A DNA stretch of 64,000 bases from Verrucomicrobiota bacterium (lineage in GTDB: Bacteria > Verrucomicrobiota > Verrucomicrobiia > Opitutales > Opitutaceae), in contig JAUWBF010000003.1 in the NCBI GenBank assembly GCA_030601755.1, forward strand, positions 31,899 through 95,898, given 5' to 3'. This document shows positions 5,161 to 41,520 of this stretch, piece by piece; the stretch's first letter is position 1, and every line of letters begins with the position of its first letter. The notes under the pieces were generated by a model, which was given only the letters and a program-made list of their open reading frames with translations, was not told where the DNA came from and made no database searches. The translations under genes and the position numbers were made by a program.

Positions 5161-6696
5161 ATGTCCGTCCGTCGTTTAGCCTTGGTCCGGTGTTTTCTGT
5201 GCGTGTCGCTCTTCGGCGTGTTGCCGGCGGCGGCCGCCATCGAACGCGTCGAGGTCAACTTCGACCACGTGCGCCGGCTCGCGGCGGAGCGCGCTCGGGA
5301 GCCCTACCGCTCCACGTCCGGCGACCTGCCCAAGGGGCTCGCCAAGCTCACCCGCATGGAGGAGCTGGGCATCCGCTTCCGTCCGGGCGGGGAGATCTGG
5401 GGCGGTGACGGGCTGCCCTTCAACCTCGAGCTGCTCCACCGCGGGCCGTTGCGGCCCGAGGCGATGACGGTGCGCGAGTTCAGCGCGACGCATGAGCAGA
5501 CGATCCCGTTTTCCAAAAACTTCTTCGAATACGGCGACGCCGGCCGGGTGGGGTGGCTGCGCTCCTCGCTCAATTTCGCCGGCGTGCGGGTGCGGGCGGC
5601 GATCAACCGCCCGGACGCCTACGACGAGTGGCTGACGTTTGTCGCCGGTGCCTGGCGCGCCATCGGCTCGGGTCAGGCACCCGGCGCGTGGGCCAAGGGC
5701 CTCGCGGTCGACGCCGGCGTGCCCGGCATTACCGAGGAAAGCCCGCTGTTTACCGACGTCTGGCTGGGCAAGCCCGAGCCGGGCGCGCGGCGGTTGACGG
5801 TCTACGCGTTGCTCGACACGCCGAGCCTGACCGGCGCGTATCAATTCCACGTCACCCCCGGCGCCCGCACGACCGCCGAGGTGCGCGTCGAGCTGTATTT
5901 CCGAAAAAACGTGGCGCAGGTCGGCTTCGCGCCGCTGACCACGTCCTTCTGGTATGGCGAAAACACCCCGCGCCCCCCGGGCCTGCTCTGGCCGGAGCGG
6001 CACGACTCGGACGGCCTGCTCGTGCGCACCCGCGGCCAGGCCCCGCTCTGGCGTCCGCTCGGCAACCCCGCCGGCGTGCAACGCAGCGAGTTGACCGTGC
6101 CGGCGCTGGAGGGCTTCGGGCTTTTGCAACGCGACCGCGACCCCGCGCACTATCAGGACCTCGACGTCGCCTTTCACCAAAAACCCTCGGTCTGGATCGA
6201 GCCGGTCGGGAACTGGGGCGCGGGCTCCGTCCGCCTGATCGAGTTGCCCAATCCCCGCGGCGCGGACCGCAACATCATCGCCTTCTGGGTGCCGGCCGCG
6301 CCGCCCGACATCACCCGTCCCGTGCCCATCGCCTACCGCGTGACCTGGGGCGAACCCGAGGCCGCCGCCTATGCGCGCCTCGCGCGGGTCGTTTCCACCC
6401 GCTCCGGCGTGCCGCCGGGCGCGGGCGAGGCGGGCGGACGCGTGCGGCTCTTCTGGGTGGATTTCCAAGGCGAGGCCGTGGCCGGCTTGCAAGACCCCGA
6501 GGTGACGGCGCACGTCGACGCGCGTTACGGCCGAGTGCTCGCCCACCGCCTCGTGCGCAATCCCGGCCTGCCCGGCTGGCGCGTCGAGATCGAGGTCGAG
6601 GCCGACGAGGGCGCGCGCCTGGTGGAATTGAGCTGTCAGTTGCGCCGCGGTTATGAAGCATTGAGCGAAAGCTGGACCACGCCATGGATTCCCTGA
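5161..6696 (+). CDS. opgG: periplasmic glucan biosynthesis protein, OpgG/OpgD (MdoG) family
   Basis: 511-aa ORF with a signal peptide (MSVRRLALVRCFLCVSLFGVLPAAAA). Size and sequence are typical of MdoG, and opgH lies downstream. Confidence 0.85.
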   Translation: MSVRRLALVRCFLCVSLFGVLPAAAAIERVEVNFDHVRRLAAERAREPYRSTSGDLPKGLAKLTRMEELGIRFRPGGEIWGGDGLPFNLELLHRGPLRPEAMTVREFSATHEQTIPFSKNFFEYGDAGRVGWLRSSLNFAGVRVRAAINRPDAYDEWLTFVAGAWRAIGSGQAPGAWAKGLAVDAGVPGITEESPLFTDVWLGKPEPGARRLTVYALLDTPSLTGAYQFHVTPGARTTAEVRVELYFRKNVAQVGFAPLTTSFWYGENTPRPPGLLWPERHDSDGLLVRTRGQAPLWRPLGNPAGVQRSELTVPALEGFGLLQRDRDPAHYQDLDVAFHQKPSVWIEPVGNWGAGSVRLIELPNPRGADRNIIAFWVPAAPPDITRPVPIAYRVTWGEPEAAAYARLARVVSTRSGVPPGAGEAGGRVRLFWVDFQGEAVAGLQDPEVTAHVDARYGRVLAHRLVRNPGLPGWRVEIEVEADEGARLVELSCQLRRGYEALSESWTTPWIP

Positions 6697-7277
6697 ACAC
6701 CCTGCCCGCGACGCCCTCCGCGGAGTCTCCGCTCCCGATCGACCGGGCGTGGGACGAGGCGTTTCTGCGCGTCGAGAGCTATCTGCGCTCCCACCGGCTC
6801 GAGAGCCGCATCCTCATCAGCCGCCTCACCACCGAGATCATCCGCGCCGCGCAGGCCGAGGCCGCCGCCCGGCCCGGACTCGTGCCCGTGCAGGTCGCCA
6901 TGGACGTGGCCGACCGCCGCATGAGCGCGTGGTTCATGCGCGTGCTCGGCGAGGACGTGGCGGACGAACCCCGCCTCGGCGCCCGCGGCCGGCTCGCGCT
7001 CGTGCTCGCCGACGTGCCCGGCCGCTGGCCCCAGTATTTTCTCTCCGACGAACCGCCGCCCGCCGACCTGGTCGCCGCCATGCGCAGCGCCTACGTCGAG
7101 GCCGGCCCGCAACTGCGTTTCTCCAACATGGTGCCGCGCCCCATCGACCTCGGCCCGATCGCCTCCGCCGCCGGCGAGACCTGGAGCACGCTCCGCCGCT
7201 GGCCGTTGCTTCGCGCCGTGCTCGGCTGGGTGTTGATCGTCGCCGCGCTCGCCGGCATCTGGGCGGCCACGCATTGA
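6684..7277 (+). CDS. hypothetical protein with C-terminal TM helix, between opgG and opgH
   Basis: 197-aa ORF overlapping the opgG end by 13 nt and ending 10 nt before the opgH ATG. C-terminal WPLLRAVLGWVLIVAALAGIWAA. No recognisable domain. Confidence 0.5.
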   Translation: MDSLNTLPATPSAESPLPIDRAWDEAFLRVESYLRSHRLESRILISRLTTEIIRAAQAEAAARPGLVPVQVAMDVADRRMSAWFMRVLGEDVADEPRLGARGRLALVLADVPGRWPQYFLSDEPPPADLVAAMRSAYVEAGPQLRFSNMVPRPIDLGPIASAAGETWSTLRRWPLLRAVLGWVLIVAALAGIWAATH

Positions 7278-9614: not shown

Positions 9615-12600
9615 GTGTCCGCAAAAATCCTCCTGGTCAAAACCGGCGGCGCCTTCCGCGCCAAAGCATTGGTCGCGGTCAAGTCCGGACTCTACAACCG
9701 CCCCCTCGCCGACGAAGCCGAGCTTGAGAAGTCCCTGAGCACCGAGCGGTTTGACCTGATTCTTCACGACGGTCGCGACCTGAAGGGCGACCTCCTGGTC
9801 ATGGCCGAGCAGATTCGCGTCCACCAGGCCACCACCCCCATCATTCTCCTCTGCGCGGTCCCCGAGCTGGACGTGGTCGTCAAAGCCATCCGCCTCGGTG
9901 TGCGCGACGTGCTCCACGCCCCCGTCAACCTCGGCGCCCTCTTCACCCGCATCGCCGAGCTCCTGCAGCCCCGCCTGCACGACGACACCAAGGCCATCGC
10001 CCAGCAATATCGCCAGGCCATCACCTTCTTCCTCGCCGGCGAGGATGCCGGCGACGCCCCGATGCCCGCCGCCCGCGCCGAAGGCGTCGACAACGCCGAG
10101 CTCGAGGCTCTCCGCGCCGAGTGCGACCGCCTCACCAAACAGTTCGAGGAAGAGTCCGAGCGCCGCCGCCAGCTCGAGAACACCACCGCCTCCAGCGGCG
10201 CCGAGATCGAGCGTCAGCGCGAGGAACTCGCCGCCGCCGAGAAGGAACTCCAGGTCGAGCTCAAGCGCATCGAGGACGAGCGCGCCGCCACCGCCGCCGT
10301 CATGGCCGGCATCGAGGCCGAGCGCGCCCGCCTCAAGCAGGAGGCCGCCGAGATCGAGGCCCACGGCAAGACCATCGAGCCCGAGCGCAAGAAACTCGAA
10401 AAACTCCGCAAGGACAGCGAGAAGCTCAAGGCCGACCTCGACGCCCAGCAGGAAGACCTCGTCGGCCGCGAGGAGGCCCTCTCCCGGCTCATGCGCTCCC
10501 TTGGCACCAAGGAGGACCGCATCGCCGCCGACAAAAAGGCCGTCGAGGAAGCCACCGCCGCCCTTGAGGCCGGCGAGGCCGAGCTCGAGGCCGCCCAAAA
10601 GGCCTTCGCCGCCGAGCAGGCCTCCTTCGCCGGCGCCCGCGAGCAGATCGCGCAGGACCGCGCCAAGCTTGAGGCCGACCTCGCCGGACTCGAAGCCGCC
10701 CAGGCCGAGCAGAAAAAAGCCCTCGACGAACTCGCCCGCCGCGAGGCCGACCTCGCCGCTGAGCAGGCCGACCTCAAGTCCCGCGAGAAAAAACTCTCCG
10801 CCGCCCAGGCCACCCTCGCCACCACCGAGAGCCGTCTCGCCAGCCTGGAGGAGGAACTCAAGACCGCCGCCGCCGCGCAGGAAAAAACCTTTGCGGAACG
10901 CGAGGCCGATCTTGCCACCCGACTCGAGGCCGCCGGCAAACTCCAGGCCGAGCTCAAGGATGCCCGCGCCGAGCACGCCGCCGCCGAAAAGGCCTTCAAG
11001 ACCGAGCGCGCCAAGCTCGACGCGGACCTCGCCGGTTTCGCCGACGAACAGGCCCGCGTCACCCGCGAGGCCGAGCAACTCGGCGCTCGCGAGGCCGAGC
11101 TGCAAAACCGCACCGCCGAGCTGGCCAAGCTCACCGCCGATTTCGAGAAACGCCAGTCCGCCCAGACCAAGCGCGAGGCCGAACTCGCCGCGATGGAGGA
11201 GGAACTCGCCGCGCAGGCCGCTCCGCTCAAGAAAGCGCAGGAAGAACTCAAGGCCGCCCAGGCCGAGCACGCCGCCGCCGAGAAAAAGTTCGCCGCCGAG
11301 CGCGCCAAGCTCGACGCCGACCTCGCCGGTTTCGCCAAGGAAAAGACCGCGCTCGACCGCGAGACCGAGCAACTCGGTGCCCGCGAGGCCGAGCTGCAAA
11401 GCCGCACCGCCGAGCTGGCCAAGCTCACCGCCGACTTCGAGAAACGTCAGGCCGCGCAGACCAAGCGCGAGGCCGAGCTCGCCGCGATGGAGGAGGAACT
11501 CGCCGCGCAGGCCGCCCCGCTCAAGAAGGCGCAGGAAGAACTCAAGGCCGCGCAAGCCGCCCATGCCGCCGCCGAGAAAGCCGTCAAGGCCGAGCGCGCC
11601 AAGCTCGACGCCGACCTCGCCGGCTTCGCCAAGGAAAAGACCGCGCTCTCCCGTGAGACCGAGCAACTTGGCGCCCGCGAGGCCGAGCTGCAGGCCCGCA
11701 CCGCCGAGCTGGTCAAGCTCACCGCCGACGTTGAGAAACGCCAGTCCGCGCAGACCAAGCGTGAGGCCGAGCTCGCCGCGATGGAGGAGGAACTCGCCGC
11801 GCAGGCCGGTCCTCTGAAAAAATCGCAGGAAGAGCTCAAGGCCGCGCAGGCCGAGCACGCCGCCGCCGAGAAAAAGTTCGCCGCCGAGCGCGCCAAACTC
11901 GATGCCGACCTCGCCGGCTTCGCCGAGGAAAGCGCCGCCATCAAAAAGCTCGCCGCCGAGAACGCCGAGCGCGAGACCCAGCTTCAGGCCAAGGCCAACG
12001 AACTCCGCAAGACCGATGTCCGCCTGCAAAACCGTGAGAAGGCCATCGCCGAGCAGGAAGCCGAGCGCGAGGCTCTCTCCAAGGAACTTGAGACCAAGCT
12101 CAAGGCCGCCGACGCCACCCTCGCCGACCTCGCCGCCCGCGAGTCCCGTCACGAAGCCGCTGTCAAGGACCTCGCCAGCCGTCAGGCCCGGCTCGAGGCC
12201 GACCTCGCCGGACTCGAGGCCGAGCAGGCCGAACTCAAGACCCAGAAGTCCGCCCTCGCCAAGAAGCAGGCCCAGATCGCCGAGCAGGACGTCGAGATCG
12301 GCAACGCCCGCTCCGCGTTGGAAAAGCGCGAGGCCGACCTTGAGGCCCGCGAAAAGAAGACCAACGCCACCCTCGAAAAACGCGAGCAGGCCGTCGCCAC
12401 CCAGGAGGCCGCGCTCGCCAAGCGCCTCAAGCCCATCGAGGAGGCCGAGGCCAAGCTCGCCGAGAAGACCGCCGCCCACGCCGCGGCCGCCAAGGCCCTC
12501 GCCGCCGCTCAGGGCAAGTTCGACGCCGAGCTCGCCGGCTTCGAGGAAGCCCAGGCCGAGGCCAAGAAACAGGCCGCCACCATCGCCCAGCGCGAGGCCA

Positions 12601-13145
12601 AGCTCGCTGACAAGGCCGCTTCCCTCAAGACCCTTGAGACCGAACTCGGCAAACGCGAGACCGAGCTCGCCAAGGCCGAGAAGCAGGCCGCCGAGTCCGC
12701 CGCCAAGCAGACCGCCGACCTCGCCGCCCGCGAGAAAAAGCTGGGCGTTCGTGAAACCACGCTCGAGGCCCGTCAAGCCGAGGTCAGCGACATCGAAGTT
12801 CAGCTCAAGGCCGAGCAAAAGAAACTCCAGTCCGACCAGGCCAAGCTCGAGGCCGAGATCGCCGGCATCGAGGCCGCCCAGGTCGAGCTCAAGGCCGAGC
12901 AAAAGAAGCTCGCCGATCTCGCCGCCAAACACGCTGCCCGCGAGAAGGAGCTCAAGAAGCTCGCCGCCGAGACCGAGGCCCAAGCCGCCGAGTTCGAAGT
13001 CGAGAAGACAATGCTCGCCAAGCAGCGCACCCTCCTCGAGGCCGACAAGGAAGGCCTCGCCGCCGAACTCGCCGACTTCGAGACGAAGAAAAAAGCGTTT
13101 GATTCGGAAAAACGCCGACTGCAAAACCTGCTCAGCGCAGGCTAA
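9615..13145 (+). CDS. pseudo-receiver domain protein with about 1050-aa coiled coil (AglZ/FrzS-like architecture)
   Basis: GTG start. The N-terminal ~120 aa has a CheY-like pattern (KILLVKTGG...FDLILHDG...PIILLCA...VRDVLHAPV). The remainder is an uninterrupted A/E/K/L/Q-rich heptad-like sequence with internal 98-aa repeats. Confidence 0.75.
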   Translation: MSAKILLVKTGGAFRAKALVAVKSGLYNRPLADEAELEKSLSTERFDLILHDGRDLKGDLLVMAEQIRVHQATTPIILLCAVPELDVVVKAIRLGVRDVLHAPVNLGALFTRIAELLQPRLHDDTKAIAQQYRQAITFFLAGEDAGDAPMPAARAEGVDNAELEALRAECDRLTKQFEEESERRRQLENTTASSGAEIERQREELAAAEKELQVELKRIEDERAATAAVMAGIEAERARLKQEAAEIEAHGKTIEPERKKLEKLRKDSEKLKADLDAQQEDLVGREEALSRLMRSLGTKEDRIAADKKAVEEATAALEAGEAELEAAQKAFAAEQASFAGAREQIAQDRAKLEADLAGLEAAQAEQKKALDELARREADLAAEQADLKSREKKLSAAQATLATTESRLASLEEELKTAAAAQEKTFAEREADLATRLEAAGKLQAELKDARAEHAAAEKAFKTERAKLDADLAGFADEQARVTREAEQLGAREAELQNRTAELAKLTADFEKRQSAQTKREAELAAMEEELAAQAAPLKKAQEELKAAQAEHAAAEKKFAAERAKLDADLAGFAKEKTALDRETEQLGAREAELQSRTAELAKLTADFEKRQAAQTKREAELAAMEEELAAQAAPLKKAQEELKAAQAAHAAAEKAVKAERAKLDADLAGFAKEKTALSRETEQLGAREAELQARTAELVKLTADVEKRQSAQTKREAELAAMEEELAAQAGPLKKSQEELKAAQAEHAAAEKKFAAERAKLDADLAGFAEESAAIKKLAAENAERETQLQAKANELRKTDVRLQNREKAIAEQEAEREALSKELETKLKAADATLADLAARESRHEAAVKDLASRQARLEADLAGLEAEQAELKTQKSALAKKQAQIAEQDVEIGNARSALEKREADLEAREKKTNATLEKREQAVATQEAALAKRLKPIEEAEAKLAEKTAAHAAAAKALAAAQGKFDAELAGFEEAQAEAKKQAATIAQREAKLADKAASLKTLETELGKRETELAKAEKQAAESAAKQTADLAAREKKLGVRETTLEARQAEVSDIEVQLKAEQKKLQSDQAKLEAEIAGIEAAQVELKAEQKKLADLAAKHAAREKELKKLAAETEAQAAEFEVEKTMLAKQRTLLEADKEGLAAELADFETKKKAFDSEKRRLQNLLSAG
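10945..11935 (+). repeat. in-frame 294-bp (98-aa) tandem repeat, three full copies plus a partial fourth
   Basis: Phase markers GCCGAGCACGCC / GCCGCCCATGCC lie at 10968, 11262, 11556 and 11850, exactly 294 nt apart. Unit: ...AEHAAAEKKFAAERAKLDADLAGFAKEKTALDRETEQLGAREAELQSRTAELAKLTADFEKRQAAQTKREAELAAMEEELAAQAAPLKKAQEELKAAQ. Confidence 0.9.
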
Positions 13146-13157
13146 TAAACCCCCTTT

Positions 13158-15362
13158 ATGGCATCACCCAACGACTCACGCCTCTATCTTGAGATAACCC
13201 CCTGTTCATCGCGAGCGGCACTGGTCTCGGGCAACAAAGTGACGGCCTACGGCGAGTTCACGCCCGACGCCAAGGACGCCCTCGCCGCGTTTGTCGCCAA
13301 GCACGGCGCCGGCTCCTCCGGGGTCGCACTGGTCGTGCCGGAGCAGTTTCACGCCCTGCTCTCCGACGCCGCCCAGGCCTCCGGCAACCGCAACCGCGCC
13401 TCCTGGGAAAAGCTCGCCGCCGGCCTGCCCCACGGTTGCGACGGCCCGCTGAAAGTCTCCGTTTGCGACGCCCACTCCGGCACCGCGCCCGCCGACTCCG
13501 GCAGTGATCCGTGGGTCATGAGCATCACCACCCAGGCCGCCCTCTCCGAGGCCGCCGAGTCCGCCGTCGAGGCCGGCCTCAAGCCCGCCGGCATCCGCCC
13601 GCTGCTCAGCGCCCAGCTCGGCGCGGTCGTGCAGACCCTCCAGCTCACCGAGAACCACGACGACGTCATCGTCTACTCGATCGGTCGCGGCTCCTCCGTG
13701 CTCGCCCGTGTCTCCGCGCAGGGCGTGCAGGCGCTGACCGTCCTGCCCGAGGCCGGCTCCGACCGCTTGTTCGAGGCCGTGCAGGCCGGTCTCGGCCTCA
13801 AGTTCAAGGCCGCCGCCGTGAAGCTCTTCTTCAACGAAGGCTACGACTTCACCGACACCGCCGAGGCCATCGCCGCCTCCCTCTCCGAAGTCGTCAAACC
13901 CGCGCTCGCCACTCTCGGCGGCTCCCCCAAGGAGCTGCAGGTCGTCAGCCTGCTCCAGCCGCAGAAGTGGCTCGAGGACGCGCTGGCCAAGGCCCTCGGA
14001 CTCGCTCCGCTCAAGGCCGATCCCACCGGCCTCGCCCACGGCAACGCGCTCATCGCCGAGGGCCTGCCCTCCGGCGCCATCGGCCTGCTGCAAGCCATCG
14101 CCGGCCACTCCACCAGCCTCTCCGCCTGGCTCCCGCCGTCGGTTGACGAGGCCCCGGCTCCCGCTCCCAAGCCCGTCGCGCCTCCGGCCCCGGCCGCGCC
14201 CGCGCCGAAGCCGGCCGAACCTGCCGCGCCCAAACCCGCGCCTGCGCCTGCGCCGGCCCCCGCCCCGAAGCCCGAGCCGAAACCGGAACCGAAGCCCGAG
14301 CCCAAGCCCGAACCCGCGCCGGCTCCCGCTCCCGCGCCCGCCCCCAAGTTCACCGCGCCTCCGCCCGCCAAGCCCAAGGCCGCGCAGCCCAAGCCGCCGG
14401 CGCCCGTGCCGCGTCCCGCCGCGCCCGCGCCGGCCCAGCCGCCCGCGCCCGCCCCGATTCCCGCGGCCGCTCCCGCGACCCCCGAGACGCAGACCGTGCA
14501 GACCGCCGTCGCCTCCGCCGCGGCCGGCACGCCCGACGCCCCCCGCAAGGGCGGTGGCAAGAAGCTCGGTCTCATCATCGGCGCCGTCGTGGCGCTCGTC
14601 GCCATCGGCATCGGCGTCAAGGTCGCTGGCGACAGCAGCAAGGCCAAGGCCGAGGCCGCCCGCATCGCCGCCGAGGAAGCCGCCAAGGAGGCCGAGGTCG
14701 CCCGTCTGCGCGAGATCCGTCTCTCCGCGTTGAACGCCGAGGTCGCCCGCGACCCGATGTCGTTCAAGAACTCCAACTACTCGTTCGAGATCACCGACAA
14801 GGGCTTCATCCGCAAGCTCGCCAACTCTTCCAACCAGGTGCTCATCGACTCGGCCGGCGCGGTCAACCTGCAGGGCAGCTACGTCACCCCCGAGGGTCGC
14901 CGCGTGTGGTTCTACGCCGGCGGAGTCGGCAACTCCACCTACACGGCCACCGTGCAGAAGGGCATCGTGGGCGCCGACATCGCGTTCAGCGTGCACATCA
15001 CCCATCCGCGCTTCGAGCTGAAGCAAGTCATCACCTGTCTGGACAAGTCCGTGAAGGTCGAGGCCGACTTCACCCCCATCAAGCTCCAGGACGAGCGCGG
15101 CTCGATCAGCGCCATCTACGCCGTGCAGCTCTGGCCCGCCGCCCTCAAGGCGCGCGAGGAGGTGCAGGTCATCAGCGGCGGCGTGCGTTATCCCACGCAG
15201 AGCGGCCCGCTGCGTTTGACCTACGACGGCGACATCTGGCAGGTCGGCGAAAAGCCCGGCAAGCAGCTGGTTAACGTCGGCGACACCGGCACGGCCTTTT
15301 ACTTCACCGACGTGCCCGAGCCCGCCCGCCGCAAGCTCAACTACGAGATCGCGCTGCCCTGA
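13158..15362 (+). CDS. PilM/GspL-like actin-fold domain, Pro-rich linker, TM helix and unknown beta-rich C-terminal domain
   Basis: Starts 12 nt after the previous stop. N-terminus: RLYLEITPCSSRAALV...AVEAGLKPAGIRPLLSA...VIVYSIGRGSSVLARVS...GSDRLFEAVQAGLGLKFKAAAVKLF...ELQVVSL, a PilM/FtsA-like pattern. Then ~110 aa PAPK/PEPK linker, TM helix LGLIIGAVVALVAIGIGV, a short coiled coil and a ~200-aa domain. Confidence 0.6.
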   Translation: MASPNDSRLYLEITPCSSRAALVSGNKVTAYGEFTPDAKDALAAFVAKHGAGSSGVALVVPEQFHALLSDAAQASGNRNRASWEKLAAGLPHGCDGPLKVSVCDAHSGTAPADSGSDPWVMSITTQAALSEAAESAVEAGLKPAGIRPLLSAQLGAVVQTLQLTENHDDVIVYSIGRGSSVLARVSAQGVQALTVLPEAGSDRLFEAVQAGLGLKFKAAAVKLFFNEGYDFTDTAEAIAASLSEVVKPALATLGGSPKELQVVSLLQPQKWLEDALAKALGLAPLKADPTGLAHGNALIAEGLPSGAIGLLQAIAGHSTSLSAWLPPSVDEAPAPAPKPVAPPAPAAPAPKPAEPAAPKPAPAPAPAPAPKPEPKPEPKPEPKPEPAPAPAPAPAPKFTAPPPAKPKAAQPKPPAPVPRPAAPAPAQPPAPAPIPAAAPATPETQTVQTAVASAAAGTPDAPRKGGGKKLGLIIGAVVALVAIGIGVKVAGDSSKAKAEAARIAAEEAAKEAEVARLREIRLSALNAEVARDPMSFKNSNYSFEITDKGFIRKLANSSNQVLIDSAGAVNLQGSYVTPEGRRVWFYAGGVGNSTYTATVQKGIVGADIAFSVHITHPRFELKQVITCLDKSVKVEADFTPIKLQDERGSISAIYAVQLWPAALKAREEVQVISGGVRYPTQSGPLRLTYDGDIWQVGEKPGKQLVNVGDTGTAFYFTDVPEPARRKLNYEIALP
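14268..14315 (+). repeat. (KPEP)4 coding microsatellite inside a Pro/Ala/Lys-rich linker (about 14140-14480)
   Basis: aag ccc gag ccg aaa ccg gaa ccg aag ccc gag ccc aag ccc gaa ccc. Confidence 0.8.
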
Positions 15363-15398
15363 GCGTCGCGGCGATCTGAACCGCGTTTGTCATTTCCA

Positions 15399-15429
15399 AG
15401 CCCGGGCGGTTTTCGCCCGGGCTTTTTTT
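15399..15429 (+). terminator. intrinsic terminator after the two-gene operon
   Basis: GCCCGGGCG-GTTTT-CGCCCGGGC followed by TTTTTTT. Confidence 0.8.
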
Positions 15430-15495
15430 GCGCGCGGACGGCAGCGTGCAAAAGCGCATTGTGCCCGGCGGCGAGGACCCCTTGTCTGCGCTGTC

Positions 15496-16401
15496 ATGAG
15501 CGACGCCCTTCAGCCCATTCATTTCTATGACCGCCACGACCGGACCGTGCGCACCGAGCGCATCTACGGCGAAAAGTGGCTGCGCTGGGCCTACGAGCAT
15601 CCGGTGGGCCGCATGAGCGTCGAGGCGCTGCTCAAGCGCGCGGTGTTTTCGAAATGGTATGGCTGGCGCATGAATCGCCCCGCGAGCGCCGCGAAGGTGC
15701 TGCCGTTCATCGTCGACTACGAGGTCGACGTGGACGAGTTCGCCAAGCCGCCGCTCAGCTACAAGACCTTCAACGAGTTCTTTTATCGCACGCTCAAGCC
15801 CGAGGCGCGTCCCATCGCGCCGGGCGCGGAGGTCGCGGTGCTGCCGGCCGACGGCCGCCACCTGGTGTTTCCCGACGTCGACGCGTGCATGGGTTTTTAT
15901 GTGAAGGGCGCGAAGTTCACGCTCGCCGAGCTGCTCGGCGACGAGGCGCTCGGCCGCGAGTTCGCGGGCGGCTCGTTGGTCATCTCGCGGCTGTGTCCGG
16001 TGGACTATCACCGCTTTCATTTCCCGGTGAACGGCACGCCCGGCGAGCCGGAGCTGATCAACGGTTGCCTCTACTCGGTGAGTCCGGTGGCGTTGCGGCG
16101 TAACGTCCGCTACCTCGTGCAAAACAAGCGCGAGCGCACGCTGGTCGACTCGCCCGAGTTTGGCCGCGTGGCGGTGCTGGAGATCGGCGCGACCTGCGTC
16201 GGGTCCATTGGTCAGGAGTTCGTGCCGGGTCGTGCGGTGGCCAAGGGCGACGCCAAGGGCTGGTTCGCGTTCGGCGGCTCGTGCGTGGCGACGGTGTTTC
16301 AGCGCGGCCGCATCCGCTTCGACGCGGACCTGGTCGAACAAAGCGCGGGCCACGTCGAGACCTACGCGAAGATGGGCGAGCGGCTGGGCGTGGCGACGTG
16401 A
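15496..16401 (+). CDS. psd: phosphatidylserine decarboxylase proenzyme
   Basis: 301 aa: FNEFFYRTLKPEARP...LCPVDYHRFHFPVNG...GWFAFGGSCV (GS cleavage motif). Confidence 0.9.
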   Translation: MSDALQPIHFYDRHDRTVRTERIYGEKWLRWAYEHPVGRMSVEALLKRAVFSKWYGWRMNRPASAAKVLPFIVDYEVDVDEFAKPPLSYKTFNEFFYRTLKPEARPIAPGAEVAVLPADGRHLVFPDVDACMGFYVKGAKFTLAELLGDEALGREFAGGSLVISRLCPVDYHRFHFPVNGTPGEPELINGCLYSVSPVALRRNVRYLVQNKRERTLVDSPEFGRVAVLEIGATCVGSIGQEFVPGRAVAKGDAKGWFAFGGSCVATVFQRGRIRFDADLVEQSAGHVETYAKMGERLGVAT

Positions 16402-17258
16402 AGCAAACCTGTTATCTCAAGCCTGTCGTGAACGCGCTCAATGCGCTGAACGACATGCTTTGGTTCAATCGTTTCAACGGCCATGAAGCTATGGGGCTGA
16501 TGATGGCAATGTCCGGGGAAAAACCTGAGGGGCTCACCGGCGAGTGTTTTCCCGGCAATCCGTTTGCGGCGCGTTTTAACGTGCGTCTCAAGGAGGTTGG
16601 ACGGCATGGTGCCATGCACGACGAAATGTTGTTCCGTGTCGTTTATGGCTGCTCCTACGAATATTTCAGCCGACATCGAAAACGAATGTTGGAGTTGCTG
16701 GAATCGTGCGGAGGCAAGCCTTGGATATCGCCGAGAAAAAGCGGATCCGAGGCACCCGAAGAACGGTTTGATCGGGCTTTGCGTTCATGCGGTTACCGGC
16801 GGATGCGTCACCGGCACAAGGTTTCGGCCGCTTACGCGCGGGTCCGCCGGAATCAGTATTTCCACGCAGCCGATGCGACGTGGGGAAAGATGGCGGGCAT
16901 ACTGGCGAGCAGCGGGGCAAGGCTTAACCAACTTTGGTCCAGACAACCGGCGGTGGATCGGGTGGATTTCACGAGTGATGGCTTGAGCGGCTGCTCCACG
17001 GAGGAGGCGATCGGGCTTTTGCGATTGCTGCTCATCCTGACCAAAGAGATCGATGCCCACACGGTGGCTTTGCTCGATCAGGACAAGCTCGTTGAGCACA
17101 GTCTTGCCCTCTGGACCGAAGAGGAAAAGTCGAGGCGGCTGGCGGGCGGGCGGGGTCGGGTGACTCGGATGGTTGTGCGGCTGCGCGACGAATTGGGAAT
17201 CCGGCGCGGTCGCGGCGATGTCGAGATGCTGCTGGTCAGGAATCGCGGCTTGCCATGA
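16398..17258 (+). CDS. hypothetical protein, AT-richer, with RNxxxH (HEPN-like) motif
   Basis: Part of ORF 16281..17258. Candidate starts are GTG 16398 (GTGA overlap with the psd stop) or ATG 16455. Contains AYARVRRNQYFHAAD, which I verified at the DNA level. Composition is visibly less GC-rich than the flanks. Confidence 0.5.
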   Translation: MKQTCYLKPVVNALNALNDMLWFNRFNGHEAMGLMMAMSGEKPEGLTGECFPGNPFAARFNVRLKEVGRHGAMHDEMLFRVVYGCSYEYFSRHRKRMLELLESCGGKPWISPRKSGSEAPEERFDRALRSCGYRRMRHRHKVSAAYARVRRNQYFHAADATWGKMAGILASSGARLNQLWSRQPAVDRVDFTSDGLSGCSTEEAIGLLRLLLILTKEIDAHTVALLDQDKLVEHSLALWTEEEKSRRLAGGRGRVTRMVVRLRDELGIRRGRGDVEMLLVRNRGLP

Positions 17259-26940: not shown

Positions 26941-27861
26941 TCAGTTGAACAGCGCGCCGAAGTCCGCGAAGTAGGCGTCGACCCAGCGGTGCGCGAAGAG
27001 GAAGTAGAGCGCGCCGGCGATGGCCAGCATCGGGCCGAAGGGCACGTGCACGCCGAAGCCGATGTTCTCGGTTTCCTCGCCTTCGCTGGTCTCGGCCTTC
27101 GGCGCGATGGGGGCCTTTTTGCCGGTGGCGAGTTGCCAGAGCTTGGCCACGGCCATCCACACGGTGCCGACGATCGCGCCGCCGAACATGGCGAACACCG
27201 CGCCCTGCCACCCGCAAAACGCACCGATGGCGCCGACGAACTTGATGTCGCCAAACCCCATCGCCTCCTTGCGCAGCAGAATCTCCGCGATCAGCACGAT
27301 CCAGAGCACCAGACCGGAGCCGATGAGCACGCCCGTCAGCGAGATGAGTCCCGAGCGCATCATCGCGACGATGCCGATCTCGTGATAAACATCGTGCAGC
27401 GCCGGCACGAAGAGCGACACCACCACGCCGATCACGGCCAGCCCGATGGTGAACACGTCCGGGATGATCATGTGGTCGAGGTCGATGAACGTCGCGCAGA
27501 CCAGGCAGCTCAAAAAGAACATGCCCGCGACCGCCTTGGCCGGCGGGAACAGCAGCCAGCACGCGAGGAACAGCAGCGCCGTCAGCAACTCGACCGCCGG
27601 GTAGCGCACGCCGTAGGCGCGGCCGCAGCAACGCGCCTTGCCGCGCAGGAGAATCCAACTGAGCACGGGGATGTTGTCATACCACGCGATGGGCCGGCCG
27701 CAGGCGCACTGGGAGCCGGGGTGCACGATGGATTTCTCGGCGGGCACGCGGTAGATGACCACGTTGAGAAAACTGCCGACCACGGCTCCGAACAGCGTGG
27801 CGCAGATGGGGAAGAACCACGGGAAGGCGGCGGCGAATTCGGCGTAGTTAAAGTCGGCCAT
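26941..27861 (-). CDS. pilD: prepilin peptidase (A24 family)
   Basis: 306 aa: GSFLNVVIYRVP...C..CGRPIAWYDNIPVLSWILLRGKARCC...FIDLDHMIIPD...GFGDIKFVGAIGAF. Confidence 0.9.
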   Translation of the reverse strand: MADFNYAEFAAAFPWFFPICATLFGAVVGSFLNVVIYRVPAEKSIVHPGSQCACGRPIAWYDNIPVLSWILLRGKARCCGRAYGVRYPAVELLTALLFLACWLLFPPAKAVAGMFFLSCLVCATFIDLDHMIIPDVFTIGLAVIGVVVSLFVPALHDVYHEIGIVAMMRSGLISLTGVLIGSGLVLWIVLIAEILLRKEAMGFGDIKFVGAIGAFCGWQGAVFAMFGGAIVGTVWMAVAKLWQLATGKKAPIAPKAETSEGEETENIGFGVHVPFGPMLAIAGALYFLFAHRWVDAYFADFGALFN

Positions 27862-33446: not shown

Positions 33447-33576
33447 CGACGCGGTGATTTTCTCAGCCCTGCGTGTCGGTTGGTCTGGCCAAGCCGCGCC
33501 CCGTGTTGGACAAACGATGCACAGCCCGCGTTCTTGCCCGCCAATGCGGCCTGCACTTTGCTTTAACCCGACTGCC

Positions 33577-36500
33577 ATGAAGACCAACGCCGAACACACC
33601 TCCCTCGTCCTCCCCGATCCCCTGGATCCCCGTCTGCTGGCCTACCTCAACCTCAAGTTGAGGGAAATCGGCCAGGAAGGCGTCGCTCTCCCGAAGACCG
33701 ACGACGACGGCCTGTCCGGCCTGGTCGACCACCTCCTCGCCGTCAGCCGCGAAAAGGACCGCATGCTCGCCCGACATCTGAGCCCGGTCGACCAGCGCAT
33801 CCAGAACTACCTTTACTACGCCCTCGACGAACACGCCGAGGTGCCCCGCCTGCCCGCCACCACCCTCGTGCTCGACCGCCCCGGCCTCGCCAAGGCCCTC
33901 TCCCTGCCGCCCTCGGCCGACGAGTATCGCAGCTCGATCCTCACCTCCACCCGCGTGGCCAACGGCGTCCTGCACAACCCCAAGTCCGACCGCCGCACCA
34001 CCCAGGGCATCTTCCACGTCGCCGAGGGCGGCCTGCCCATCCCCGACGACAAGAAGGCCGTGCCCGCCGCCACCTTCGCCCGCATCCTCGCCAAGGCCCT
34101 CAACCCGCCCGCCGAACTCCTGCGTCTGCCCTACACCGCGCGCGAGCACCGCCCCGCCGCCTGCTTCGTCTCCCTCTACCTGCGCCCCGTCGTCGTGCCC
34201 GCCGTGCCCGGCTTCTCGCCCAAGCGCACCATGGAGACCCGCTTCTTCATCCCCGGCAGCCTCGTGGCCAACCTCGACTTCGTCGAAAGCATCTTCGGCA
34301 ACGCCGGCGACCCCGGCCTCCCCGAGAACGACGCCGCTCTCGACCCCGAGCACTGGACCGGCCACACCGGCTGCATCATCCTCGCCCCGCACCTTAACGG
34401 CCTGACCAAGAAGGAACTCGGCCTGCCCAACATCAAGGACGCCACCGAGCGCCAGAAACGCGACGGCATGTGCTGGGCCGAGCCCGACGAACGCTACAAC
34501 GACGGCGTCGCCTTCAAGATCACCTGCCGCGACGCCCACGGCGTCGTCGTCACCGTCATCTCCGACAACTACTTCGGCTACTGCAAGAAGGAGGTGAAGA
34601 CCCAGCTCTCCTTCTCCGCCAACCTGCTCGGCCTCGCCGAGGAAGAGCACGCCGGCGGCGCCATCGCCTTCCCCAGCTACGACCTCGGCGAGGACTTCCG
34701 CCTCAACACCAACGAGCCCGGCGTCGACCACACCTTCGCCGACTCCCTCAAGCTCCTCGGCGACCGCGCCGAGCTCCAGCCCGCCGGCTGGGCCGCCGAC
34801 ACCGTGTATCCGGACATCTACTACGTCCCGGAGGACGCCTACTTCGACCTCCGCGCGCAGACCGTCACCTGGGGCTCCGGCGACAAGGCCGTGAAACTCA
34901 AGCTCCTCCCGCGCATCACCTACGTGTTGCCCTCCGGCTACAAGGTCGAGATGGTCCGCCCCGACGGCGCCACCCGTTGGAAGCTCCGCGGCACCAAGGC
35001 CGAGGGCCTCCTCTGCCACAAACCCTGCACCGTCTCCGGCGGCGGCAAGTCCGAGATCTCCAAGTCCATCGCCGACGCCACCTTCACCGGGCCGGTCTTC
35101 GTCTCCGACCTCGCCAAGGACCTCGACATCGTCGACGAGATCCTCGCCAAGGAATACGGCCAGCGATTCCGCGACCCCGCGAAAAACCGCGCCAAGGGCC
35201 GCCCCATCCTCAGCCGCGAGCGCTCGCTCGGCTCCGTCGTCAAGCTCCTCAGCCGCAGCCCCGACTACACCGAGGAATACAATGCCTGGCTCGGCTCCAT
35301 CCCGCGCTACATCCGCGACCTCGTCCTGCTGGTGAAGCGCCTCTACAAGCCCGAGTGGGGCACCGAGTGGCGCAAGCACTTCTCGGTCGACACCATCAAC
35401 GGCCGCCCCGGCAACGAGCTCAAATACCACGGCCAGAAACTCCAGGCCCAGTATCTGCGCATCGGATACACCAAGGACGGCGGCTGGCGCACCTTCAGCC
35501 TGCGCAGCGACTTCATGCCCGCGGTGAAGATCCAGGCCGAGGACGACATCACCGCCTCCACCGTCGCGCCGGCCGCCTCCGTGGTCGGCTCCTCGGCGGC
35601 CGAGCGCCCCGGCGCCTCGATCAAGGTCGTGCACAACTGCGAGACCCGCCTCTTCCAGCGCCCCGACGACGCCATCGTGCGCGGCTACGACCGCCACACC
35701 GAGCGCGACTTCAGCGCCCGCGGCAACTTCTTCTCCAACTACGAGGCGCTCACCCGCGACGAGGCCAAGGACGTCGTCGAGGACACCCTCGGCTTCGAGA
35801 GCTTCACGCCGCCCGTGCGCGACCTCTTCAAAGACTTCCTCGCCGCCGACAAACCCGACTTTGTCGTCTCGCCCGCGCACCCGCGCATCGTCGACGGCAA
35901 GCCCACCAAGAACCCGCGCTACCTCCAGGTCCGGCCCGACCTCGTCGACCCCCGCACCACCTACGTCGCCCAGAGCGCCGCCCGCCTCCTGCGCGGACTC
36001 GACGCCGCCAAGACCCCCGTCTTCCCCGTCGGCGCCGTGCTCATGGGCCGCCGCATGAACCCGCCCGAGAAGGGCGTGCGCGCGCTCTGCACCTACAGCC
36101 CGATCCACTACCAGGAGCTGCCCGAGGCCTTCATGGACCTCATCGCCTCGCTCACCGGCAAGTCGCCCTCGACCACCGGCGCCGGTTCCGAAGGCGCGCT
36201 CACCAAGGGCCCCTTCAACGCGCTGCCCCCGATCTACGACCTCAACGCCGCGCTCGTGTCCTTCCTCATCACCGATCTGCCCGCGTTCTCGTCGGCGGCC
36301 GGCTGGGTCGGCCCCAAGCTCCGCGTCGACCACGACGTCAGCCTGCTCGTCCCCGAGATCTGGTGCCGCATGAGCCGCGAGGAGCGTGATCCGAAGTTCC
36401 TCATCGCGAACGGCTATCTGGAGAAGGTCGAGGACTTCGATCACGCCGGCAAAAAGGTCCTCGCCTCGCGCCTCGGCTACCGCATCACCACGCGCTTCGT

Positions 36501-39743: not shown

Positions 39744-40871
39744 TCACTTTGGGTTCAGAACCAGCATCATCTCTTTCGCATGTTGTCGCGCCGCACGCCC
39801 ACCTTCATCTGCGCGGCCATCGCCTGTTCCGCCTAGTGTGCTAAACCTGCTGGATACCTGCGTTTCGCCAACGTGGAAGTGTTTACTCGCGATCTCCCTG
39901 ACTGTGGTGCCTGAAAGGCCATTGGAGCACTCATGATCCGGAAAGGTTAGGATTGCTCGTGCACTTCGGGAAGCGACGGTCTCAAGCAGGTTATCAAGCG
40001 CGCCCGGTGATTCAGAACCAACACTATATTTTGAACGTGGACGCAGCTCCGGTGCTGGGTAGCGACCGATGCCGGAAACTTCGCCGCATGAACCTTGCGC
40101 GATCGTTTCCAAAACATGATAGAACCGGCTGTAATGAACACCCGAATACGGGGGGTCGATGAATGCAAGGTCTCCCTCCTCAAGGCGAGTTGCCGCCTCA
40201 TTCGCATCGGCAACTTCAGCTCGTCCTTGCTGCTGAGCGCATAGAATCCCGATGGATTCGAATGCGTTGTGAGTCTTCTGCACGATATCCCTGTTCCAAG
40301 CTTCGGCCAAATACCGCTTCGATGTTTTCGTCGGTTGGAATGGCTGGGCGGTATGCCCTGGAGCTGCGGCGCACTGACTTGCGGCGTGAATGACCGCGGC
40401 GAGCGCGACTGTTCGTGAAGGTTCCCTTTCAGGCAGCTTTGCGCATAACGCGTCAATCCACACAGCTTGCTTCGCGCTAAAGTAATGGCCACCGTATGCT
40501 TTCGTAATGGGTAGTTCCGACTGAGCGCTGCACCATTTGCGACACGCCGAAACGGACGCAATGGTGACCTTGGTCGTGTCCGGAACCCCGAGCCTTTTTA
40601 CAAGTGATTCAGCTCGTCTCTTCCAAGCGGGAAAGAAGGCATTTGGATCAAGCGCCTCCTGCCGGTGGATCACAGCTCCAGCAAGAACGGCACTGTAAGC
40701 TTGGAGATCAAAAGCCAATGAGGGAATATTGAATCGGCAGGCTACATGAACTGACACGGCGGCCGAACCCGCGAAGAGGTCAATGAAACGGCGGGACTTG
40801 GGAACCTCTCGGCCGAGCAATTCGCCCAGTCCGTTGCCAAGCATAGCTCGCTTTGATCCCATATACTTCAT
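39744..40871 (-). CDS. DNA methyltransferase, Dam-like (D12 class; FxGxxxV and DPPY motifs)
   Basis: MKYMGSKRAMLGNGL...RFIDLFAGSAAVSVHV...LAFIDPPYSGVHYSRFY. AT-richer than the flanks. Its ATG overlaps the upstream ORF's stop (ATGA at 40868-40871). Confidence 0.65.
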   Translation of the reverse strand: MKYMGSKRAMLGNGLGELLGREVPKSRRFIDLFAGSAAVSVHVACRFNIPSLAFDLQAYSAVLAGAVIHRQEALDPNAFFPAWKRRAESLVKRLGVPDTTKVTIASVSACRKWCSAQSELPITKAYGGHYFSAKQAVWIDALCAKLPEREPSRTVALAAVIHAASQCAAAPGHTAQPFQPTKTSKRYLAEAWNRDIVQKTHNAFESIGILCAQQQGRAEVADANEAATRLEEGDLAFIDPPYSGVHYSRFYHVLETIAQGSCGEVSGIGRYPAPELRPRSKYSVGSESPGALDNLLETVASRSARAILTFPDHECSNGLSGTTVREIASKHFHVGETQVSSRFSTLGGTGDGRADEGGRAARQHAKEMMLVLNPK

Positions 40872-41507: not shown

Positions 41508-41520
41508 AAACGGGAGCGGG

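Follow-up and report, generated by a model that had tools for sequence, protein, structure and literature searches.

Within the window, i.e., the complete 64,000-nucleotide stretch analyzed here, two open reading frames on the (+) strand encode a giant pseudo-receiver coiled-coil protein (gene 1) and a bitopic inner-membrane protein (gene 2). Both were found where the preliminary description had placed them, and both have a coding-type composition (GC3 = 0.87 for gene 1 and 0.91 for gene 2; Table 1). The short gap reported between them was read directly from the sequence; among 12 same-strand relatives, it measures −4 to 75 nt in all but one (L026, 219 nt). The strong terminator reported after the pair was likewise recovered, as a hairpin 3′ of gene 2 (15398–15424) whose 12-bp stem contains 9 G-C pairs and closes on a 3-nt loop, followed by a T-run. 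Terminator-like sites in the region are in total not above shuffled sequences (9 vs. 10.2), and this hairpin, right after the gene 2 stop codon, is the sole long and G-C-rich one. The sequence upstream of gene 1 yielded no sigma-70-like promoter, a result that is uninformative for this phylum.

Table 1 Features of the gene pair, in window coordinates.
Feature	Position	Strand	Description or evidence
Gene 1	9615-13145	+	Pseudo-receiver and giant coiled-coil protein, 1176 aa, GTG start
Receiver-like (pseudo-receiver) domain, residues 1 to ~125	9615-9989	+	Pfam, PDB and profile matches
Continuous heptad coiled coil, residues ~160-1170	10092-13124	+	Hydrophobic periodicity
Tandem repeat, 294 nt (98 aa), 3.3 copies, inside the coiled coil	10953-11931	+	Tandem Repeats Finder
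Conserved gene 1 C-terminal segment, last 60 aa	12963-13142	+	Alignment of 20 family members
Intergenic gap, 12 nt	13146-13157	+	TAA stop, TAAACCCCCTTT, then ATG; read directly
Gene 2	13158-15362	+	Bitopic inner-membrane protein, 734 aa, ATG start
Cytoplasmic PilM-like actin-fold domain, residues 1 to ~318	13158-14111	+	AlphaFold2, Foldseek
Pro/Ala/Lys/Glu-rich low-complexity tether, residues ~326-462, cytoplasmic side	14133-14543	+	Composition
Single TM helix, residues ~470-490, N-in	14565-14627	+	Kyte-Doolittle maximum 2.56
Periplasmic helical stalk, residues 496-531	14640-14750	+	AlphaFold2
Periplasmic all-beta domain, residues ~534-734	14757-15359	+	AlphaFold2, Foldseek
Intrinsic-terminator-like hairpin and T-run	15398-15431	+	Consensus scan and direct reading

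The pair is surrounded in the window by mdoG, mdoH, psd, xylA, and similar genes, with mdoG, a small ORF, and mdoH before it and psd after it both here and in several relatives. No pilus, T2SS, or division gene adjoins the pair in the window, and no MglA, SgmX, Frz, or Glt partner gene adjoins it in the window or in annotated related loci. The prepilin peptidase gene reported in the window is real (26941–27861, (−) strand) and sits among housekeeping genes, with the same synteny in a related MAG; at 12 kb from the pair and in this housekeeping context, it provides no evidence for a link. Histidine kinases are encoded at 48400–50280 and 51453–54773.

The head of gene 1 is clearly homologous to receiver domains at the level of sequence profiles. 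A profile of the gene 1 family (16 members) compared to solved receiver domains matched RssB best (E = 8.7e-11), with 6swl (an unnamed two-component response regulator), SenB, the CpaE pseudo-receiver (E = 6.9e-9), PmrA, and PleD among the other top PDB matches. Searches with the single sequence yielded a weak Pfam Response_reg hit to residues 32–113 (26.4 bits, under the 30.2 cut-off) and, as the best PDB match, the non-phosphorylated adaptor receiver of PleD. FrzS was absent from the best 60 of the 114 PDB matches to the family profile, and no specific sequence relationship to FrzS was seen. The initial designation of gene 1 as AglZ/FrzS-like stands for its architecture. In all 27 aligned family sequences, the receiver quintet is reduced to one Asp: Asp52 is invariant and in register with the RssB phospho-acceptor, the acidic pair is changed to K/R plus T/N, the Thr/Ser to Cys/Gly, and the Lys to Pro/Ala/Ser/Cys. 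Because only this central Asp is kept, gene 1 is a pseudo-receiver protein, in which Asp52 could still have a regulatory role. The start codon (GTG) and the N-terminal sequence “VSAKILLV” are likewise conserved among gene 1 orthologs.

The remainder of gene 1 is dominated by a coiled coil with a 3.5-residue periodicity power of 9.35, vs. 0.14 ± 0.13 in shuffles. The preliminary description gave a CheY-like domain joined to about 1050 aa of coiled coil; the head is receiver-like, and the heptads stay in phase across ~1000 residues. Six residue types (A, E, K, L, Q, and R) make up 78% of this region, which contains six prolines (residues 256–940); at 0.1485 nm per residue, the rod would measure ~150 nm if fully extended. 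Gene 1 family members adjoining gene 2 homologs range from 667 to 1803 aa, and this variable rod length fits the internal tandem repeat of the window protein (88% matches, no indels, score 1487). While the length of the mid-rod varies, the C-terminal segment aligns with few gaps in 20 complete members, across all three gene orders described below, with the pattern LKKE..N.R..LEA...ALEAE...K.FE.KR..QE.MK. Scores of gene 1 against NCBIfam models such as SMC, HmpF, and ASRP were far under their cut-offs and reflect coiled-coil composition.

For gene 2, a PilM/FtsA-like opening pattern had been noted, and all three motifs quoted for it are present. The N-terminal domain is modeled as an actin/ASKHA fold with high confidence (AlphaFold2 pLDDT 92.6, pTM 0.92), and its top 10 Foldseek matches are all PilM (E ~1e-13, TM 0.51–0.59), led by 2ych (E 9.8e-14, TM 0.59), with alignments of 333–358 columns for a 335-residue query and a probability of 1.00. 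FtsA comes next (E ~1e-10), followed by EpsL/GspL at ranks 32–40 (query TM 0.35–0.40). PilM also provided the top two matches when the gene 2 family profile was compared to PDB sequences (E 0.011 and 0.014). No Pfam or NCBIfam model, including those for PilM and GspL, matched gene 2 or any of 23 aligned members. A word-indexed homolog search with the N-domain retrieved nothing, and one with the 23-sequence profile retrieved three proteins; the family was instead recovered by exhaustive search of library representatives, of which 416 matched gene 2 at E ≤ 1e-3. The N-domain was present in ~105 of the best 150 listed 50%-identity cluster representatives, and the exact gene 2 protein was also found in two Logan assemblies.

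Residue conservation within this domain is highest in the motif LGLKF.AA.KLFFN..YDF, around predicted helices 201–212 and 217–224. In the window protein, nucleotide-binding motifs are degenerate, with Ser264 in place of the adenosine-loop Gly and Ser174 in place of the phosphate-2 acidic residue, two residues that are otherwise common in the family; the phosphate-1 loop has no Gly. Family-wide, the adenosine-loop GGG is cut to a single Gly, and this reduction speaks against a conserved ATPase role. Most family members have the phosphate-2 consensus (D/E)-x-G-x-x-x-S, so that nucleotide binding is possible in relatives.

The actin-fold domain is followed by a low-complexity tether (P 37%, A 29%, and K 10% across residues 326–470) that includes short tandem repeats at 14265–14314 and 14395–14477. 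A Pro/Ala/Lys/Glu spacer is thus present as first described, with a length of ~137 aa rather than ~110 aa, and this length is variable, since the TM helix of homologs lies at residues ~390–720 (mostly 410–560). The one TM helix predicted initially was recovered, preceded by RKGGGKK. Beyond it, the segment first taken for a short coiled coil is modeled as a single continuous helix of 36 residues (model residues 2–37, pLDDT ~90), and the outer domain is, as proposed, beta-rich and without a recognizable family: its AlphaFold2 model is all-beta (pLDDT 94.4), and no Pfam or NCBIfam model matched the C-terminal part of gene 2. Foldseek matches to this domain were of moderate score (E 8.5e-6 to 1e-3, TM 0.4–0.5) and included GH38, GH63 YgjK, 1,2-beta-oligoglucan phosphorylase, cellobiose phosphorylase, cyclic glucan synthase, and mutarotase-like proteins. 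The modeled domain hence resembles carbohydrate-binding beta-sandwiches of the galactose-mutarotase-like or glycoside-hydrolase type.

An N-in orientation of gene 2 is supported by the TM helix itself and by the domains found beyond it. The C-domain occurs elsewhere behind cleavable signal peptides, in stand-alone exported paralogs that are 46–59% identical (P0002–P0009), and PEGA and TonB_C were found in all 10 distant gene 2 relatives tested, with TonB_C at the C-terminus. PEGA repeats plus TonB_C replace the beta-sandwich in most relatives, and neither the window protein nor the rest of its clade carries TonB_C. Several candidate relationships were discarded. Profile comparison of the C-domain to MdoG returned a probability of 0.07%, PDB sequence matches to gene 2 were all to Pro-rich linkers, including weak matches to TonB spacers, and the matches listed for a spacer pattern in a contig scan (L003–L006) were spurious Pro-rich sequences.

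Metagenomes were scanned with a 7-sequence alignment, and co-conservation of the two genes was evaluated across related loci from Verrucomicrobiota, retaining non-redundant ones flanked by at least 1.5 kb on each side. The two families were directly adjacent in 20 of these 22 loci and in three gene orders: in 11 loci gene 1 lies upstream of gene 2 on the same strand, in 7 the two diverge, and in 2 gene 1 lies downstream on the same strand. This adjacency persists at only 25–40% identity. The preliminary description had named two outcomes that would refute it, a gene 2 N-domain without an actin/HSP70 fold and a lack of co-conservation in related genomes; both were checked, and neither was observed. 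Adjacency is not obligatory, since two loci (L029, and L062 from an Opitutaceae MAG) have a gene 2 homolog with no gene 1 homolog within 10 kb. In an all-against-all clustering of neighbors aimed at a third conserved partner gene, the recurring ones were clade-specific housekeeping genes (psd, rpiB) and antisense shadow ORFs; no pilus or secretion gene was found beside the pair in any locus examined, and no ExbB/ExbD/TolQ/TolR gene was adjacent in loci with annotated neighbors. NCBI labels, available for a few clusters and used for the taxonomy of the relatives, describe gene 2 relatives as “TonB family”, “PEGA domain-containing”, or “hypothetical”. Searching the literature for a PilM-like/coiled-coil system already described in Verrucomicrobia returned nothing relevant.

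The closest functional analog of the pair is AglZ-GltJ, from the Agl-Glt gliding system of Myxococcus xanthus. There, GltJ binds AglZ directly through its cytosolic domain, thereby connecting it to both a TM helix and a periplasmic TonB-C domain (PMC11135422, PMC11761067). In both systems, a cytoplasmic protein made of a receiver domain and a long coiled coil is paired with a single-pass inner-membrane protein, which contains long disordered or Pro-rich segments and a cytosolic adaptor region (PMC11135422, PMC11761067). Both also include a periplasmic TonB_C, here in most gene 2 relatives, and an actin-fold protein on the cytosolic platform, i.e., MreB in Myxococcus and the fused PilM-like domain here. 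However, on its cytosolic side GltJ has a zinc finger and a GYF domain rather than an actin fold, Pro-rich sequence is found in AglZ rather than, as here, in the membrane protein, the AglRQS motor, MglA, and other glt genes are not near the pair, and the window gene 2 has a beta-sandwich instead of TonB_C. Sequence homology is apparent only at the level of shared superfamilies, and the host phylum is different (Verrucomicrobiota). FrzS, which is about half as long as gene 1, lacks the phospho-acceptor Asp, whereas the gene 1 family keeps this Asp and loses the other four residues. It similarly has an N-terminal pseudo-receiver followed by a coiled coil predicted to dimerize, and its pseudo-receiver serves as a protein-binding surface (PMC1974792, PMC9811614, PMC12632262).

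PilM is the best structural match across nearly the whole gene 2 N-domain and the top PDB profile match, and its phosphate-2 strand aligns in register with the gene 2 family. Unlike PilM, which binds the PilN N-terminus, the gene 2 domain is covalently continuous with a TM helix of the same protein, has degenerate nucleotide motifs, and lacks both a Pfam/NCBIfam PilM match and pilNOPQ neighbors. GspL/EpsL share the bitopic layout of gene 2, in which a single TM helix joins a cytoplasmic actin-like domain to a periplasmic one, with the cytoplasmic domain acting as a non-enzymatic adaptor, but are a weaker structural match with another periplasmic fold, and gene 2 has no gsp context. TonB family proteins likewise have a single TM helix, a Pro-rich spacer, and a C-terminal TonB_C, the latter in most gene 2 family members; in gene 2, however, the TM helix is at residue ~470, after a 320-aa actin-fold domain and a cytoplasmic spacer.

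Taken together, a scaffold coupled to the envelope is the best reading of the pair, and we give about even chances to gene 1 and gene 2 forming one functional unit that tethers a cytoplasmic scaffold to the cell envelope. This is suggested by the operon structure (short gap and terminator after gene 2) and by an adjacency conserved without other third genes than the clade-specific psd and rpiB. Gene 1 would form a long, probably dimeric, cytoplasmic coiled-coil rod of ~150 nm, with its pseudo-receiver head as a protein-binding rather than a phosphorylation module. The PilM-like domain of gene 2 may be a docking adaptor for this rod, most likely not an enzyme; its best matches, PilM and FtsA, are peptide-binding membrane-proximal adaptors. 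The flexible Pro-rich tether and TM helix would then connect it to the periplasmic stalk, whose glycan-binding-type beta-sandwich may grip an envelope component. The analysis itself establishes the folds of the domains, the topology, the missing receiver catalytic residues, and the conserved adjacency of both families, and from these the physical interaction between the two proteins, the target of the periplasmic domain, and the role of the pair in the cell are inferred; candidate roles include polarity, shape, adhesion, or motility. The logic would be that of Myxococcus AglZ-GltJ, with different parts. A role in polarity or gliding would not be obvious in cocci, the shape of most described Opitutaceae.

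A more specific version of this proposal, which we consider rather unlikely, is that Opitutaceae and related Verrucomicrobiota independently evolved a minimal two-protein link between cytoskeleton and envelope, in which a PilM-like actin-fold domain clamps a receiver-headed coiled-coil filament of 100–270 nm. This domain would have been joined to a trans-envelope tether of TonB-like or glycan-binding type, and the pair would perform the job shared by AglZ, MreB, and GltJ in Myxococcus focal adhesions. Position or force could then be passed between the cytoplasm and outer envelope layers, for adhesion, surface movement, or the control of shape and polarity.

Other readings of the same locus were considered. 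Gene 2 could be the PilM-PilN or GspL equivalent of a T4P/T2SS-like machine and gene 1 a FrzS-like polar regulator, as the best fold match to PilM, the additional matches to EpsL/GspL, the GspL-like bitopic topology, the prepilin peptidase in the window, and the regulation of type IV pili by FrzS in Myxococcus (PMC9811614) would suggest. We regard this as improbable: pilN/O/P/Q, pilB/C, gspE/F/M, and pilin genes adjoin the pair neither in the window nor in any examined locus, PilM/GspL models match 0 of 23 members, and the peptidase is distant and in housekeeping synteny. In addition, the periplasmic beta-sandwich, or PEGA and TonB_C in relatives, is not the ferredoxin-like fold of PilN/GspL, and the PilM-PilN fusion or GspL reading of the preliminary description is therefore restricted to topology. 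Polymerization of the PilM/FtsA-like domain on the membrane in the manner of FtsA, forming a division or cell-shape cytoskeleton with gene 1, has a similarly small chance. FtsA is the second-best fold class, and the most conserved motif of the domain lies around two predicted helices, but no division gene is adjacent to the pair, the window protein has degenerate nucleotide-binding motifs, and the ~137-aa tether between domain and membrane is unlike FtsA. Comparably doubtful is a role in organizing envelope biogenesis, with the beta-sandwich binding periplasmic beta-glucans or peptidoglycan and positioning the OPG (mdoG/mdoH) and phospholipid (psd) machinery. The flanking mdoG, small ORF, mdoH, and psd genes and the beta-1,2-glucan enzymes among the C-domain fold matches (5h3z, 8rfe) are consistent with this role; this synteny is however limited to one sub-clade, with rpiB or unrelated neighbors in other clades, a terminator separates gene 2 from psd, the C-domain has no profile similarity to MdoG, and most of the family has PEGA/TonB_C instead of the beta-sandwich.

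Two further alternatives appear very improbable. If the gene 2 family were TonB-type energy transducers for outer-membrane transport or signaling, with gene 1 as an accessory regulator, this would account for the TonB_C of the 10 distant relatives, their “TonB family protein” label, and a Pro-rich spacer also typical of TonB. Yet the clade of the window protein, including that protein itself, lacks TonB_C, the spacer precedes the TM helix on its cytoplasmic face, opposite to the arrangement in TonB, none of the annotated loci has an adjacent ExbB/ExbD/TolQ/TolR gene, and neither the 320-aa actin-fold domain nor the 670–1800 aa partner has a counterpart in TonB systems. The least probable reading is that gene 1 is a working response regulator in which phosphorylation of Asp52 alters coiled-coil assembly. 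The invariance of Asp52, its alignment with the RssB phospho-acceptor, and the histidine kinases in the window argue for it, while the Mg-binding acidic pair, Thr/Ser, and Lys are missing in every member, the best single-sequence PDB match is a non-phosphorylated adaptor receiver, and no kinase gene is conserved beside the pair.

The N-domain of gene 2 represents an unannotated PilM-like actin-fold sequence family without Pfam or NCBIfam model match, and its periplasmic beta-sandwich a second unannotated family. Opitutaceae proteins labeled “TonB family”, “PEGA domain-containing”, or “hypothetical” are thereby identified as belonging to a conserved module of two genes, in which they are partnered by a giant pseudo-receiver coiled-coil protein. 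We read the pair as undescribed, i.e., as not previously described or annotated as a scaffold-to-envelope tether. If the two proteins bind each other, they would represent a second, independently assembled instance of the AglZ-GltJ principle, with a cytoplasmic coiled-coil scaffold wired through the inner membrane to the outer envelope, as well as a new use of the PilM/FtsA fold. Since the cell biology of the PVC superphylum is poorly known, such binding, if true, would provide a concrete and testable handle on it.

Comparative analysis provides strong evidence that gene 1, predicted to encode a receiver-like head followed by a giant coiled coil, and gene 2, predicted to encode a PilM-like domain joined by a transmembrane (TM) helix to a periplasmic domain, form a functional pair, because their adjacency survives three rearrangements at 25-40 % identity. 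In the window, the ORFs are separated by 12 nt and followed by a terminator-like hairpin, as first described from the sequence, and their GC3 (0.87 for gene 1, 0.91 for gene 2) is that of real genes in this window of 68 % G+C. Two short Logan assemblies carry an identical gene 2 protein with neighbours likewise unchanged. Among related loci, a coiled-coil gene lies directly upstream of the gene 2 homologue in L009, L010, L011 and L012 and is divergent in L014; where its N-terminus is on the contig (L011, L012, L014), it has the same receiver-like head as gene 1. A metagenome scan yielded 47 further loci, and HMMs of both N-terminal domains were run across all loci. When only non-redundant loci with both flanks of 1.5 kb or more were counted, the receiver/coiled-coil gene was immediately adjacent in 20 of 21, being upstream on the same strand in 11, divergent in 7 (~200-415 nt between genes) and downstream on the same strand in 2 (54-68 nt). 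Same-strand upstream gaps measured -4 to 75 nt in 11/12 non-redundant loci, and 219 nt in L026, a locus with short flanks. Two gene 2 homologues had no receiver/coiled-coil gene within 10 kb (L029 9992-11995; L062 10001-12823, Opitutaceae bacterium GCA_019694415.1); with L062 added, adjacency stands at 20/22 across the three gene orders, and the expected co-conservation in related genomes is thus borne out. In short-flank loci scored as lacking the partner, the contig mostly ends inside a coiled-coil ORF.

Features of the gene pair (nucleotide positions in the window; residue numbers for protein segments)
Feature	Position	Strand	Remarks
Gene 1	9615-13145	+	ORF, GTG start, 1176 aa
Tandem repeat inside gene 1 coiled coil	10953-11931	+	294-nt unit, 3.3 copies
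Gene 2	13158-15362	+	ORF, 734 aa
Gene 2 folded domain	residues 1 to ~318		
Gene 2 spacer	residues 326-462		segment 326-470: P 37 %, A 29 %, K 10 %
Gene 2 TM helix, single	residues 470-490		preceded by RKGGGKK
Gene 2 C-terminal part	after TM helix		
Hairpin after gene 2	15398-15424		terminator-like; 12-bp stem, 9 G-C pairs, T-run

Clustering of all neighbours revealed no third conserved gene. The only neighbours to recur were psd, at 10 loci of the window clade, joined in a subset by mdoG, mdoH and a small ORF, and rpiB, in another clade. In the clade of gene 2 relatives with PEGA/TonB_C domains, rpiB (LacAB_rpiB) recurs downstream of the pair, at a distance of a few kb, in L012, L014, L033, L035, L036, L043, L045, L047 and L062, which, parallel to psd in the window clade, probably reflects inherited synteny. 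In the window, the pair is surrounded by housekeeping genes (GDPD, mdoG, mdoH, psd, tRNA-Leu, xylA, xylB, araC-type, mdh, DAHP synthase, galK, prepilin peptidase, aroE). Between mdoG, whose end it overlaps, and the mdoH-like glycosyltransferase lies a 197-aa ORF without Pfam match (6684-7277, +); its position is kept in L011, L019, L021 and L030 (E 1e-65 to 1e-70), and it may be an undescribed component of the OPG cluster. Straight after psd, and overlapping its stop codon, lies a conserved ORF of ~285 aa without Pfam match (16398-17258, +; L001 4532-5392; L007 1971-2822), confined to close relatives. Elsewhere in the window, a 1197-aa ORF without Pfam match (33454-37047, +) is a PPi-dependent phosphoenolpyruvate carboxykinase, with near full-length PDB matches to 6k31 and 8e1u (E = 0). 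The region 40000-44234, where G+C falls to 0.556 at 40-42 kb beside the gene for the type I restriction-modification methylase HsdM (42834-44234, minus strand), may be an acquired island. Two sensor kinases are encoded at 51453-54773 (+) and 48400-50280 (+); one is a hybrid histidine kinase of MASE1-CHASE type that includes a receiver domain, and the other is fused to a periplasmic solute-binding domain; no conserved context ties either to the gene pair.

The head of gene 1 falls below the Pfam cut-off for Response_reg (residues 32-113, 26.4 bits against 30.2). Its top PDB match in a single-sequence search was the non-phosphorylated adaptor receiver of PleD, and a 16-member family profile convincingly matched solved receivers (RssB, 8.7e-11; CpaE pseudo-receiver, 6.9e-9). 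Alignments to RssB and PleD, together with 27 family sequences, indicate that Asp52 is the sole survivor of the receiver quintet: K/R plus T/N stand in for the acidic pair that follows strand 1, Cys or Gly for the Thr/Ser, and Pro, Ala, Ser or Cys for the Lys. Because only this residue is left, the CheY-like head recognized initially qualifies, judged from its alignment, as a pseudo-receiver by the usual definition (PMC12632262). Its conserved surface is AIRLGVRD. Beyond the head, A/E/K/L/Q/R make up 78 % of residues ~160-1170, and hydrophobic 3.5-residue periodicity is pronounced (power 9.35, versus 0.14 +/- 0.13 in shuffles); the heptad phase is therefore held over ~1000 residues, in agreement with the long continuous coiled coil first proposed, and the stretch would correspond to a rod of roughly 150 nm. 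Within it, three near-identical units of 98 aa (88 % nucleotide matches, no indels) point to recent lengthening through tandem duplication. With proteins of 667-1803 aa in the family, rod length is evolutionarily plastic; the C-terminal 60 residues show few gaps in the family alignment.

Neither Pfam nor NCBIfam matched gene 2, as a whole protein or in parts, and its PDB sequence matches, all to Pro-rich linkers, were rejected. A search through all 1.84 billion cluster representatives recovered 416 relatives (E <= 1e-3), with the N-domain common to ~105 of the best 150. This domain carries the conserved motif LGLKF.AA.KLFFN..YDF. The AlphaFold2 model of residues 1-335 (23-sequence alignment; pLDDT 92.6, pTM 0.92) supports the PilM/FtsA-type actin fold suggested earlier: the top ten Foldseek matches in the PDB were all PilM, from Thermus, Pseudomonas and Myxococcus (E 9.8e-14 to 4e-11, TM 0.51-0.59, almost full-length), followed by FtsA (~1e-10), with EpsL/GspL not before ranks 32-40. 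Independently of the model, PilM gave the top two PDB matches to the sequence profile (E 0.011 and 0.014), with phosphate-2 strands in register. The motif (D/E)-x-G-x-x-x-S is present in most of 75 family members. In the window protein, Ser174 occupies the acidic-residue position and Ser264 the adenosine-loop Gly position, and a single Gly is left of the GGG loop family-wide, which makes it unlikely that the family has kept an ATPase role.

For residues 495-734 of gene 2, AlphaFold2 (pLDDT 94.4) predicts a helix of 36 residues and, after it, an all-beta domain. The fold matches of this domain (E 8.5e-6 to 1e-3) were the beta-sandwiches of GH38, GH63 YgjK, 1,2-beta-oligoglucan and cellobiose phosphorylases, cyclic glucan synthase and mutarotase-like proteins; at TM 0.4-0.5, they moderately support a predicted carbohydrate-enzyme-associated fold, unlike PilN/GspL. 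The same domain occurs at 46-59 % identity in proteins of 300-325 aa (P0002-P0009), where a cleavable signal peptide or a TM anchor precedes it; this confirms an extracytoplasmic C-domain and an N-in, C-out topology. In these stand-alone proteins, including L008 8001-8930 and L009 3680-4582, a Pro/Glu-rich or coiled-coil linker follows the signal peptide or TM helix; in L009, the gene for P0007 directly follows the gene 2 homologue. All ten distant gene 2 relatives tested have a PilM-like domain, spacer and TM helix, then 2-3 PEGA repeats, and end in TonB_C; in the window clade, the beta-sandwich has taken the place of PEGA/TonB_C. NCBI/JGI list these relatives under 'TonB family protein', 'PEGA domain-containing protein' or 'hypothetical protein', and the handful of labelled clusters are assigned to Opitutaceae bacterium or Verrucomicrobiota bacterium. 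A Verrucomicrobiota MAG is the window's nearest relative (C-domain 87 % identity, full synteny).

The analysis demonstrates the two folds, the topology, the inactive receiver head, the uninterrupted coiled coil and the conservation of the two genes as a pair that lacks any further dedicated partner. The most economical mechanism is a cytoplasm-to-envelope tether, a function we infer at about even odds. The cytoplasmic rod of gene 1 would dock on the PilM-like domain of gene 2, through either the conserved head surface or the conserved tail as candidate sites. PilM and FtsA are themselves adaptors, binding short peptides from partner proteins at the membrane. From there, the flexible spacer and TM helix would lead on to a periplasmic stalk, whose end domain would grip an envelope component. 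In the window clade this would be a glycan; in relatives with TonB_C, it would be a partner of TonB-box type or one associated with peptidoglycan. In its logic, the closest described system is AglZ-GltJ of Myxococcus, in which AglZ (a receiver, Pro-rich sequence and long coiled coil) recruits actin-like MreB and binds GltJ at its cytosolic GYF domain, and single-pass GltJ combines a periplasmic region that is disordered with a TonB-C domain (PMC11135422; PMC11761067). Here the TonB-like protein itself carries the actin-fold module as a fusion, and the adaptor domains are not alike, so the pair is best viewed as an analogue and not a member; the AglZ/FrzS likeness drawn in the preliminary description holds for the architecture of gene 1.

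Other readings carry smaller weight than the tether. Gene 2 had been compared with GspL or a PilM-PilN fusion; the TM-joined cytoplasmic/periplasmic topology stands, but the periplasmic fold differs, which speaks against a pilus or secretion role. The prepilin peptidase is indeed present, but it lies 12 kb from the pair, with gene order identical in the related MAG, and gives no evidence of a pilus link. Gene 2 might instead be a TonB-type transducer, a role to be set beside both the TonB_C of distant relatives and the beta-sandwich of the window clade, or its N-domain an FtsA-like polymer, FtsA ranking after PilM among its structural matches. Likewise less probable than the tether are genuine phospho-signalling through gene 1, with Asp52 retained and the rest of the quintet lost, and a role of the pair in positioning envelope biogenesis, psd and mdoG/mdoH being recurrent neighbours and no third gene being conserved.

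The component folds are all known already; their combination, the conserved pairing and the two sequence families, one PilM-like and the other a periplasmic beta-sandwich, are absent from Pfam, NCBIfam and the searched literature. With its function inferred as a tether, the pair would belong among trans-envelope scaffolding modules.
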